Source: Escherichia coli | GTDB lineage: Bacteria; Pseudomonadota; Gammaproteobacteria; Enterobacterales; Enterobacteriaceae | Assembly (NCBI RefSeq): GCF_003334785.1 | Contig: NZ_QOWV01000014.1 | Length of the DNA: 64,000 nucleotides | Strand: one strand, 5' to 3' | Part shown: positions 13,058 to 47,204 of the stretch, in pieces | Layout of the letters: each line of letters starts with the position of its first letter | Numbering within the stretch: the stretch's first letter is position 1 | Program-made: the position numbers and the translations under genes | The notes under the pieces: model-generated | Databases searched by the model: none | Seen by the model: only the letters and a program-made list of their open reading frames with translations | What the model was told of the DNA's origin: nothing

Positions 13058-14023
13058 ATGAGTAAACCCATTGTGATGGAACGCGGTGTTAAATACCGCG
13101 ATGCCGATAAGATGGCCCTTATCCCGGTTAAAAACGTGGCAACAGAGCGCGAAGCCCTGCTGCGCAAGCCGGAATGGATGAAAATCAAGCTTCCAGCGGA
13201 CTCTACACGTATCCAGGGCATCAAAGCCGCAATGCGCAAAAATGGCCTGCATTCTGTCTGCGAGGAAGCCTCCTGCCCTAACCTGGCGGAATGCTTCAAC
13301 CACGGCACAGCAACGTTTATGATCCTCGGCGCTATTTGTACCCGCCGTTGTCCGTTCTGTGATGTTGCCCACGGTCGCCCGGTAGCTCCTGATGCCAATG
13401 AACCAGTGAAACTGGCTCAGACCATTGCCGATATGGCGCTGCGTTATGTGGTTATCACCTCCGTTGACCGTGATGACCTGCGCGATGGCGGTGCCCAGCA
13501 CTTTGCGGATTGCATTACTGCCATTCGGGAAAAAAGCCCGCAAATCAAAATTGAAACTCTGGTGCCGGATTTCCGCGGTCGTATGGATCGTGCTCTGGAT
13601 ATTCTGACTGCAACGCCACCAGATGTGTTCAACCATAACCTGGAAAACGTACCGCGTATTTACCGTCAGGTACGGCCTGGTGCAGATTACAACTGGTCGC
13701 TGAAGCTGCTGGAACGCTTTAAAGAAGCGCATCCGGAAATCCCGACCAAGTCTGGTCTGATGGTGGGACTGGGTGAAACCAATGAAGAAATTATTGAGGT
13801 AATGCGCGACCTGCGCCGTCATGGTGTGACGATGTTAACGCTGGGGCAATATTTGCAGCCAAGCCGCCATCACCTGCCGGTTCAACGTTACGTTAGCCCG
13901 GATGAGTTCGACGAAATGAAAGCCGAAGCGCTGGCGATGGGCTTTACCCATGCTGCATGCGGTCCGTTTGTCCGCTCTTCTTACCACGCCGATTTGCAGG
14001 CGAAAGGGATGGAAGTTAAGTAA
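13058..14023 (+). CDS. lipA: lipoyl synthase (radical SAM)
   Basis: 321-aa ORF with CxxxCxxC radical-SAM cluster motif (CTRRCPFC). Confidence 0.95.
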
Positions 14024-14052
14024 TCCTGTAATAATTACTTACATCTGTCTGA

Positions 14053-14086
14053 TAAAAAACCCGCTTTTTGAAGCGGGTTTTTTGTA
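14053..14086. terminator. bidirectional rho-independent terminator between convergent lipA and tatE
   Basis: aaaaaacccgctttttgaagcgggttttttg: GC stem flanked by A-tract and T-tract. Confidence 0.8.
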
Positions 14087-14123
14087 TCGAACAAGATATT
14101 GAGGGAGCGTCCTGCTCGCCACG

Positions 14124-14327
14124 TCACTCTTTATGAGAGAGCTTTTCAGCCTGAAGATCAACGTCTGCGCCTTTTTTCGCCGCAGCATCGTCATCATTCA
14201 TCGCCTTCTTGAACCCTTTAATGGCCGCTCCAAGGTCTCCGCCCAGCGTACGTAACTTCTTAGTCCCAAACAGCAGAACGACCAGCGCCGCAACTACCAG
14301 CAGTTTGGTAATACTAATCTCACCCAT
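14124..14327 (-). CDS. tatE: twin-arginine translocase subunit TatE
   Basis: 67-aa [36 protein letters not shown]... Confidence 0.93.
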
Positions 14328-14455
14328 AGATACCTTCTTGACATATAACCGGCAACAGAACGCGCCTTAAAAACCAGAGAATATTAACGGTCATTCGACG
14401 CGCGCACACAATAGCAATCTGTAACAAGGTGAATCAAGCGCCGAGTAAAAAAACA

Positions 14456-15249
14456 TCATAATAATTGCGGCGGCGCAAAGCGACGGTTGTTTAAGACGGG
14501 CAGTTGCGCGCGCACCTGACGCACACGTTCGGGCGTCACTTCCGCCATAATGAGTGCAGGCATTTCTGACGCTGCCGCAATGGTGACGCCAAAGGGATCT
14601 ATAATCCGGCTTTGACCGATATTTTTGTTCCCGCACTCCCCCGCCGCCACCATATAACAGGTGGTATCCAGCGCACGAGCGGCAAGCAACGTTGACCAGT
14701 GATGCTCTTTGAGCGGCCCGCGAACCCAGGCGGCAGGAAGTACCAGGATTTCAGCTCCCTGTAATGCCTGTGCCAGCGCCAGCTCTGGAAAGCGTAAGTC
14801 ATAACAGGTCATCAGACCGACCTTCATCCCTTCCACCTCCAGTAACGGAGCGATTTCATTACCAGCATCAACACGGCGTGATTCCTGAATGGCAAATGCA
14901 TCATAGAGATGCAGTTTGGCATAACGGGCGACGATGTTTCCTGCCTGAAGTGCCACCAGCATATTCCATGCGCGCCCCGGCGTTGAAGGAACATGAATCG
15001 TCAGAATTGTCGTCATCATGTTACGTTTACTTTCTCGCCGTAAAGTCCGAGGAATTCGCCTTCCAGCAGCTGTGCTGATTTAACCGATAGATCTGCATCA
15101 TGATCATCGCGCGCCAGCAATGCTTCCGGCAGGACAAACAGCGATACGTCGTTTTCCGCCGCCTGCGCCATCAACGAGGCACAAATCTCAGCGTTCTTTT
15201 CCCACACAGATGTAACAGCAAACTGTCCTGCGGCAACCAGCATTGCCAC
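14456..15249 (-). pseudogene. ybeM: C-N hydrolase (nitrilase-family) gene interrupted by a frameshift
   Basis: Two adjacent minus-strand ORFs in different frames (15016..15249, 77 aa; 14456..15019, 187 aa) jointly encode one nitrilase-family protein; junction near 15016-15022. Confidence 0.8.
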
Positions 15250-15335
15250 CTCCTGTCAGAGTCGTAAAATTCGCCAACGACGATTATTCGGCGTTACACT
15301 TATCACTCATACAAATCAAATAGCAGGATTTTGCA

Positions 15336-15721: not shown

Positions 15722-15756
15722 ACCAAAAAAAACCCGCTGATTAAGCGGGTTTTGAA
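15722..15756. terminator. bidirectional rho-independent terminator between convergent crcB and cspE
   Basis: aaaaaaaacccgctgattaagcgggttttgaa. Confidence 0.8.
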
Positions 15757-15772
15757 TTCTTGCTGACGTATC

Positions 15773-15982
15773 TTACAGAGCGATTACGTTTGCAGCAGAA
15801 GGGCCTTTGGCACCGTTAGTGATTTCGAACTCTACGCGCTGACCTTCAGCAAGAGTTTTAAAACCATTAGTCTGGATTGCAGAGAAGTGTACGAACACGT
15901 CTTTGCTGCCGTCTTCCGGAGTAATGAAACCGAATCCTTTGGACTCATTAAACCACTTAACGTTACCTTTAATCTTAGACAT
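15773..15982 (-). CDS. cspE: cold-shock-domain protein CspE
   Basis: ORF 15773..16012; start at internal Met ([20 protein letters not shown]...) giving 69 aa. Confidence 0.95.
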
Positions 15983-16156
15983 CAAAATTACCTTTACATG
16001 AAAAATAGACACAAATGCTGTGTCGGTTACCAGTACACCAATTGTGGTACGCTTTGTCCAGTGTAACTTTACTAAAAAGTGATAAAAGTCGCGTTATTTT
16101 TGATGTTACTTATTTTAGCTATTGATTTTAAAGAAGTTACTAAAACTTCATTTGTC

Positions 16157-16717
16157 TCAAAACTGAAAGCGCATCCAGGCAAAGTACACATTGCCATTGT
16201 TGTAGGTACCCGGAATGTAGGTCATCTGAAAAGTCACTGGGCCATAACCCACGGAGGCCAATGGCAGTAGAACCGGGAGAGGGATGTAATTCCAGTTATC
16301 GCGTGCCGTTACGCCAGCGGTGAATCCCAGACCTAAATGAAAATTTTCATCCGCCAGCGGTCGCCAGGTACTTTCCCATCCGTATCCGGCAATCGGTTCC
16401 CATTTGTTCCACGAGTCCTTAAATGCCATGGCATACAGGCCATGCCAGTTTCCTTTTTCATCCCAACGCGACAGGCCAAAACCGCCACCCCACGGTCGCT
16501 CGTTATAGCGATCGGTTTTTTCTTTGTCGTAAGCGAAACGTGCATGCCAGGTGATGGCAGGAATATATAAATCATAATGTTCAGGCTGTTGCCAGGTTTG
16601 TGCAATATTTTCTCTAAACGTTGTCATCCACTCATCTGCGTTAGCAAAAACTTTACCAACGCTGATTAACTGAATAAAAACAAAGGAAAAGATAGCGACA
16701 TATTTACTCACGTTCAT
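16157..16717 (-). CDS. pagP: lipid A palmitoyltransferase PagP (CrcA)
   Basis: ORF 16157..16741; start at [12 protein letters not shown]... giving 186 aa outer-membrane enzyme. Confidence 0.92.
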
Positions 16718-45593: not shown

Positions 45594-47204
45594 TCAGGCT
45601 GATGCGCGTGACGCCAGCCACTGACGTAATTGTTTTTTATCGACTTTCCCGACCGCCGTCAGCGGAAGTGAATCCACACACTCCACGCGATCCGGTAATT
45701 TAAATTCGGCAATACCCTGTTCACGCAGGAAACGACGCACCTGCACCGCGCGCAGCGGCTCTTTTACCACCAGATAAGCGCAGCTTTTTTCGCCCATCAG
45801 CTCATCTTCCATGCTCACCAGTGCGGCGTAGATCACCGCCGGGTGGCGCAGCAGCAGGTTTTCGATCTCTTCGGCAGCGATCTTCTCGCCGCCACGGTTA
45901 ATCTGATCTTTCTCGCGCCCCTGCACGGTGATGTAACCCTCTGGATCAATAGAGATCAGATCGCCGGAACAGTAAAAACCGTTGGCATCAAAGGCGCTGG
46001 CATTGTGCTGTGGACTTTTGTAATAGCCGCGGAAGGTGTACGGCCCGCGCGTCATCAGGCGTCCGACTTCCCCTTGCGGCAGTGGATTTCCTTCGGCATC
46101 GGCAACCCATACTTCGTCATCCGGACACATTGGGTAACCCTGGGTATGGATAATTTTCTCCGCGCTATCATCAAGTCGGGTGTAGTTCACCAGCCCTTCC
46201 GCCATGCCAAACACCTGCTGCAACTGACAGCCAATCTCAGCGGGAATACGCGCCGCAAGGGTGGCAGAAAGACGTGCGCCGCCGACCTGTAACAGTTTCA
46301 GCGAGGCAAGCTGCGCCCGGCTTTCGCCTTCGATCAGCGCCTGCAACCACAGGCTGACTGCGGGTGGCACCAGCGCGGTAACGTTAACCTGATGTTTTTC
46401 AATCAATGGGAAACAGAGCGTGGCGCTGGGATCGGCCGCCAGAACAACCGTTCCTCCGGCAAGAAAGACGCCCAGCGATCCTGGCGAACTCATGGCGTAG
46501 TTATGAGCCGCCGGGATCGCGCACAGGTAGCGTGTCTGTTGTGTGAACTGACAAATCTCGACGCTACGACGCACGCTGTAGTAGTAGTCGTTATGAGTGC
46601 GCGGGATCAGTTTCGGTGTGCCGGTGGTGCCACCGGAAAGCTGGAAATAGGCCACTTCATCAGCAGGTGATGGCGTGGCAGTAAAATCCTCAGCCGGATG
46701 GTTAATCGCATCCTGCAAGTTATGCTCACCGCTGTCGTTGAGCAGTTGCACCACGCGAATGGAGGAATGTTCTGTGACGAAAGTATTGAGGAAATCATCC
46801 CCGCTAAACAGCGCATGTTGGCGATCGGCAATCAGCAATGCGGGTTCAATCTGGCTGGCATAGGCGTTCAGTTCACTACGCTGATGGCTGAACAACGCCA
46901 GCACCGGCGCAACGCCCAGTTTCAGCAGCGCGAAAAAGGTAATATACAATTCAGCGACGTTACCCAGTTGTACCAGCGCGGTTTCACCAGGTTTAATGCC
47001 CTGACGGCGTAAACTACACGCGAGGTTATCCGCCGCCTGATTCAGCTCCCGATAACTCAACTGTCGCTCGCCGTCGATAACCGCGATGCTGTCACTCGCA
47101 GCATGTCGCGTCAGAATGTCGGTCAGCGGCAAATCCTGCCAGTAGCCTTTTTCCCGATAGCGACGGGCAAACTCTTCCGGCCAGCGGGTGAATGGAATGC
47201 TCAT
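45594..47204 (-). CDS. entE: 2,3-dihydroxybenzoate-AMP ligase
   Basis: 536-aa adenylate-forming-enzyme ORF (SGGTTGTPK motif). Confidence 0.94.

Follow-up and report, generated by a model that had tools for sequence, protein, structure and literature searches.

The frameshifted ybeM of an Escherichia coli contig carries the same one-base deletion as the K-12 pseudogene

Introduction

The closest described counterpart of the locus studied here is the ybeM pseudogene of Escherichia coli K-12, the pieces of which were once named ybeH and ybeM. It is the same gene, with the same neighbours (crcB-ybeM-tatE-lipA) and the same deletion (GGAC[G]TTTAC). In MG1655, ybeM has been called a pseudogene and serves as a neutral insertion site (PMC7242477), and a second paper has the gene as 'now annotated as pseudo' (PMC10652928).

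In most strains, ybeM would encode a 262-aa deaminated glutathione amidase of the Nit1 type, within the nitrilase superfamily (YBEM_ECO57; WP_000959109.1; NF033621). Hydrolysis of dGSH is the predicted function of intact YbeM, a prediction drawn from database names. Peracchi et al. 2017 reportedly assigned dGSH hydrolysis to Nit1-type enzymes, the same reaction as is predicted for YbeM. Nit1, the Nit domain of NitFhit (1ems) and yeast Nit2 (4h5u) are distant homologues from the C-N hydrolase fold family of YbeM, whose catalytic triad aligns with theirs; they are functional enzymes, whereas ybeM of the DNA analysed here is a probable pseudogene.

Two ORFs that overlap, the second of them in the −1 frame, are likewise found in genes that use programmed −1 frameshifting, such as dnaX and the transposases of IS elements. 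The ybeM locus differs from these in lacking a slippery heptamer and a stimulatory structure, and its two-frame layout is not conserved.

Here, we analysed the ybeM locus in a 64-kb stretch of E. coli DNA (hereafter, the window). We conclude, with a probability of about 0.95, that the locus is the known ybeM frameshift pseudogene, the same allele as in K-12 and restricted to a lineage. The frameshift is already known and matches the long-annotated K-12 pseudogene.

One nitrilase-family gene in two reading frames

The ORF list and a profile search showed one C-N hydrolase spread over two reading frames on the minus strand of 14456–15249. This agrees with an earlier note on this DNA, which had assigned a nitrilase-family ybeM to a 77-aa and a 187-aa ORF; both the coordinates and the consecutive profile matches given below bear that assignment out. 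The locus comprises the following features.

15016–15249, minus strand: N-terminal ORF, 77 aa if started at GTG and 75 aa from ATG (15016–15243)
15016–15243, minus strand: N fragment, the former 'ybeH', with 66 native residues, 9 out-of-frame residues (LYGEKVNVT) and TGA
14456–15019, minus strand: C fragment, the 'YbeM' of K-12, 187 aa, the first residue being native Met76
14456–15243, minus strand: ybeM pseudogene, frameshifted deaminated glutathione amidase, from start ATG to stop TAA (RefSeq and profile matches)
15249–15254, minus strand: Shine-Dalgarno AGGAGG, read from the sequence, overlapping the GTG at 15249 and followed after 5 nt by the ATG at 15243
15016–15019, minus strand: ATGA overlap, with the N-fragment stop TGA on the first ATG of the C fragment
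15044–15045, minus strand: site of a 1-bp deletion, coding-strand G missing (alignment with intact alleles)

The frame of the C fragment is −1 relative to that of the N fragment and extends upstream without a stop until the TAA at 15082–15080, giving a two-frame overlap of 64 nt (15079–15016). Both ORFs are without further stops, in the window as well as in K-12. Because the Shine-Dalgarno sequence overlaps the GTG at 15249 and is spaced 5 nt from the ATG at 15243, the ATG is the real start and the N-terminal ORF is 75 aa long. The RefSeq gene also starts at the equivalent of the ATG at 15243, and the GTG reads GTA in BLR(DE3).

The gene order in the window is lipB-ybeF-lipA / tatE-ybeM / crcB / cspE-pagP / dcuC, and this order and its coordinates match, base for base, a fully annotated E. 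coli chromosome (NCTC9100). Gene tables show that the chromosomal context is shared with K-12 (pagP-cspE-crcB / ybeM / tatE-lipA). RefSeq places a 'frameshifted' CDS at identical coordinates in a genome that is identical to the window at the ybeM locus, and annotates 'deaminated glutathione amidase, frameshifted' at equivalent coordinates of ybeM in 300709, K-12 GM4792 and NCTC9100; in EC-107 and BLR(DE3) it annotates an intact 262-aa ybeM CDS.

We used the NCBIfam profile NF033621 ('deaminated glutathione amidase', YbeM type; curated cutoff 355 bits) to assess the relation of the two ORFs. The N fragment scored 85.3 bits across profile positions 2–65 and the C fragment 344.6 bits across positions 76–260, each below the cutoff. 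As the two pieces cover the profile consecutively, they represent one gene in two frames and not a chance pair of ORFs. When the G described below is restored, the resulting 262-aa protein is a member of the family, with a score of 452 bits, above the cutoff. The window differs from intact YbeM by the frameshift, and this one G restores identity to YbeM of E. coli O157:H7 (YBEM_ECO57, a deaminated glutathione amidase according to UniProt). The restored protein also matched Pfam PF00795 (CN_hydrolase) with E = 9.4e-41, residues 3–245 aligning with model positions 2–255 of 256, and this full-domain match identifies the restored gene as a predicted member of the nitrilase / C-N hydrolase superfamily.

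The restored protein aligned unbroken across the junction with C. elegans NitFhit (1ems, E = 3e-29), yeast Nit2 (4h5u) and mouse Nit2 (2w1v). From the alignment with 1ems, the putative catalytic residues are located as follows.

15124–15126, minus strand: catalytic Glu40 (GAA), in the N fragment, aligned with Glu54 of 1ems
14915–14917, minus strand: catalytic Lys110 (AAA), in the C fragment, aligned with Lys127 of 1ems
14804–14806, minus strand: catalytic Cys147 (TGT), in the C fragment, part of the conserved motif CYD[IV]RFPE, which aligns with 1ems

The Glu-Lys-Cys triad is present and aligned in the restored protein, but it is divided between two ORFs in the window, the frameshift parting the predicted catalytic Glu40 from Lys110 and Cys147.

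A single missing G in codon 67

Alignment against intact ybeM alleles, which the earlier note had proposed, revealed one missing G between 15045 and 15044; the lesion is a 1-bp deletion. Compared with the intact allele of EC-107 (932 bp), the missing G was the sole difference over 931 bp, and the same gap was found in K-12 GM4792 and in the stool isolate 300709. With the G present, positions 15040–15049 would read GGACGTTTAC. The deleted base is the second of the codon for Arg67 (CGT) and lies ~25 nt upstream of the ORF junction at 15016–15019. The junction had been put at 15016–15022 in the earlier note, which is where the ORFs abut, but the indel itself is at 15044/15045.

Past Gly66, the window reads LYGEKVNVT and then TGA at 15018–15016, with the native continuation sitting in the −1 frame, and residues 67–75 are absent from both fragments. 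The ATGATG and the out-of-frame TGA at the ORF junction are native sequence, present in intact alleles too. The bases next to the missing G are C and T, and the surrounding 80 nt hold no run of four or more identical bases.

Relation to the K-12 allele

The 187-aa ORF of the window is residue-identical to the database entry 'PUTATIVE PSEUDOGENE: Putative protein YbeM [Escherichia coli K-12]', and the N fragment falls in the cluster of 'Putative protein YbeH' (YBEH_ECOLI). With the same lesion at the same position, the window carries a K-12-type allele. K-12 GM4792 showed zero differences from the window across the 187-aa part. In its N fragment, K-12 has two extra T>C changes, V33A (15146) and V37A (15134), that set it apart from the window and from intact alleles. 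The window thus stems from a strain other than K-12 and holds the less diverged form of the K-12 ybeM pseudogene allele. In K-12 GM4792, this T>C pair is 12 bp apart, upstream of the frameshift, and both changes are nonsynonymous (codons 37 and 33). The numbers are tiny; they would fit relaxed constraint or drift once the gene was inactivated, or else recombination over a small patch.

Frequency and ancestry of the deletion

We searched for the ybeM locus by megablast in 5426 complete E. coli genomes and found it in 5425, with a matching stretch of 931 bp (the length in the window) or 932 bp, and of 935 bp in some alleles. The deletion was then counted by exact match to a deletion-centred 80-nt query and the intact state by exact match to its 81-nt counterpart. 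The deletion 80-mer was present in 859 of the 5425 genomes (~16%, about one sixth) and the intact 81-mer in 3534. The remaining ~1030 genomes differ by single-nucleotide polymorphisms, and all of those among the matches listed had the intact length of 81 nt (e.g. NC101 and ATCC 25922). At least 65% of genomes, and probably about 84%, have a single-frame ybeM.

Intact alleles occur in O157:H7, O111, UPEC 536 and BL21-type strains, among others. Carriers of the deletion extend beyond laboratory K-12; natural isolates of human, cattle, wildlife and water origin are among them. A rough estimate from evenly spaced rows of the match listing suggests that roughly half of the 859 carriers are of the window type and half of the K-12 type.

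We read the single frame as the ancestral state and the deletion as derived, because the alignment to the NCBIfam profile and to the eukaryotic homologues is unbroken and because the majority of E. coli genomes have the single frame. The deletion probably had a single origin, given that the lesion is identical throughout and that the site is not prone to mutation.

Predicted consequences of the deletion

Loss of the G from codon 67 would cause translation from the ATG at 15243 to exit the native frame after Gly66 and to halt at 15018–15016. The remaining 187 codons stay open in the −1 frame, but without a ribosome-binding context and without the catalytic Glu40. Because the C-terminal part lacks both, ybeM here would be a recent loss-of-function pseudogene. 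The split triad points to a loss of enzyme activity, and the deletion is probably neutral. Some translation of the C-terminal fragment may persist, as the 187-aa ORF is unbroken and starts at an ATG that overlaps the stop of the N fragment.

For annotation, this means that both ORFs should be merged as one frameshifted YbeM pseudogene, and not be recorded as two hypothetical proteins or as a recoding site. Strains with the deletion, including K-12, probably lack the dGSH repair amidase found in most E. coli, and this loss is likely to matter in studies of glutathione-related metabolite repair that take K-12 as their model. The predicted loss of the amidase would also explain why ybeM serves as a neutral integration site.

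Alternative explanations

The two fragments could instead form a split gene, both being translated, with re-initiation at the ATGA, to give an active two-chain amidase or products with a separate function. The ATGA stop/start overlap is a classic layout for translational coupling, neither ORF has acquired an extra stop in the window or in K-12, and a passage of PMC5320621 cites work in which the ybeM promoter region is bound by NsrR in K-12. However, the ATGATG and the TGA are native to intact alleles as well, so the overlap is accidental, and inspection of the sequence found no Shine-Dalgarno sequence suitably spaced from the ATG at 15019. Residues 67–75 are gone from both pieces, and the Glu-Lys-Cys triad would lie on two chains. 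Furthermore, the extra changes in K-12 are both nonsynonymous (V33A and V37A) and show no sign of purifying selection, and ybeM has been inactivated by other routes in other strains and is exploited as a site for neutral insertions. We therefore regard a working split gene as very improbable.

We give just as little credence to an allele that is partly alive, in which the 187-aa fragment, perhaps together with the 75-aa fragment, would be made from the NsrR-bound promoter by ATGA re-initiation and would have a partial or new role. If true, such an allele (e.g. one for a substrate-binding protein or for a split amidase that reassembles) could help explain its persistence in ~16% of genomes.

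The earlier note had also raised programmed frameshifting. Here, programmed −1 ribosomal frameshifting or transcriptional slippage would yield the full-length amidase; the downstream frame is indeed −1, and a −1 shift anywhere in the 64-nt overlap (15079–15016) would give a near-native protein. The search for a slippery heptamer near the junction, as the earlier note had advised, found no X XXY YYZ heptamer in 15079–15016 in any frame. There are two half-sites only, A GTA AAC and A AAC GTA, at which at most one of two tRNAs could re-pair, and for transcriptional slippage there is no homopolymer of four or more bases in the 64-nt overlap. A stimulatory structure was likewise not found: the 121 nt downstream from the site had a minimum free energy of −24.5 kcal/mol, whereas the shuffles averaged −29.5 (z = +1.57), and 191 of 200 shuffles folded at least as well. 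The deleted G is all that distinguishes the region from intact alleles, so no signal for frameshifting has arisen. The two-frame state is also not conserved, being a minority state in E. coli, and the distant homologues are single-frame. With the single frame both in the majority and, as read above, ancestral, recoding is so improbable that we set it aside.

The last alternative, also voiced in the earlier note, is a sequencing or assembly error in a genome that truly has the G and an intact ybeM, and it can scarcely be credited: single-base indels are the commonest assembly error, and the record of UTME-9, in which all genes of the ybeM locus are frameshifted, shows that such artefacts exist, but the G lost here lies between C and T and not in a homopolymer, the exact deletion 80-mer recurs in complete genomes that come from many different laboratories, hosts and countries, a 24-kb part of the window that contains the site has the same length and 100% identity in about 20 independent assemblies among the matches listed, and K-12, the genome of which has been re-sequenced many times, shares the lesion.

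We thus return to the frameshift pseudogene. Of the explanations offered in the earlier note, it is the lineage-specific pseudogene that fits, in the form of the 1-bp deletion of K-12, carried by ~16% of complete genomes and labelled 'frameshifted' in RefSeq.

Other ybeM variants

In ERL06-2442, we observed a separate ybeM frameshift, in which one A of an AA pair is lost at the window equivalent of 15194–15195 and the G at 15044/15045 is kept. RefSeq labels this ybeM 'frameshifted'; the lesion may reflect either a genuine second inactivation or an error of the assembly. A third independent route of disruption is seen in O166:H15 JNE21-003, where an IS21-like element (ISEc62 family, istA/istB) lies near the 3′ end of ybeM (3816–5910 of the locus record) and ybeM is cut to a 241-aa CDS and a 99-bp remnant. 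Independent ybeM lesions in other strains suggest that the gene is dispensable under many conditions.

The 935-bp alleles were considered as a possible second indel within the gene and rejected, as their extra 3 bp are one more AGG unit within the Shine-Dalgarno region, which leaves the CDS intact. In KK19-02, for example, an extra AGG lies between the window equivalents of 15255 and 15254, changing the Shine-Dalgarno AGGAGG to AGGAGGAGG. UTME-9 (NZ_CP157110.1), the most divergent match (92.8%), was considered as an outgroup. It was discarded because every gene of the locus (pagP, cspE, crcB, ybeM, tatE and lipA) is frameshifted, which indicates an error-rich assembly rather than biology.

Neighbouring features in the window

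Within ybeM, a 56-aa out-of-frame ORF (14824–14994, minus strand) begins with MFLQRRGAH; it is in the frame of the N fragment, but stops lie between the two. A 29-bp fragment of UTI89 ybeM encoding exactly MFLQRRGAH caused filamentation when over-expressed from pBAD24 (PMC6206680).

A sigma-70-like match faces crcB at 15243–15270 on the plus strand (TTGCCA, a 16 nt spacer and TAAAAT; 10/12). It overlaps the ybeM start and the Shine-Dalgarno sequence, and such sites are no more numerous in the region than in shuffles. A passage of PMC5320621 reports NsrR ChIP peaks at crcB/ybeM in CFT073 and K-12.

Four Rfam matches were listed for the window, all above the gathering score.

15725–16167, minus strand: cspA thermoregulator, over cspE and its leader, 124 bits
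29153–29261, plus strand: rnk leader, 125 bits
34474–34567, minus strand: sRNA STnc70, 42.7 bits
63095–63136, plus strand: ES036/CssrF, 40.5 bits

No tRNA genes were found across the 64-kb window. The entE gene is intact in the window (45594–47204, minus strand, 536 aa) and is labelled 'frameshifted' in NCTC9100 (13653–15264 of the locus record). The first 32 kb of the NCTC9100 record otherwise match the window coordinates, so either the window stems from a different assembly or the entE frameshift of NCTC9100 is an indel error.
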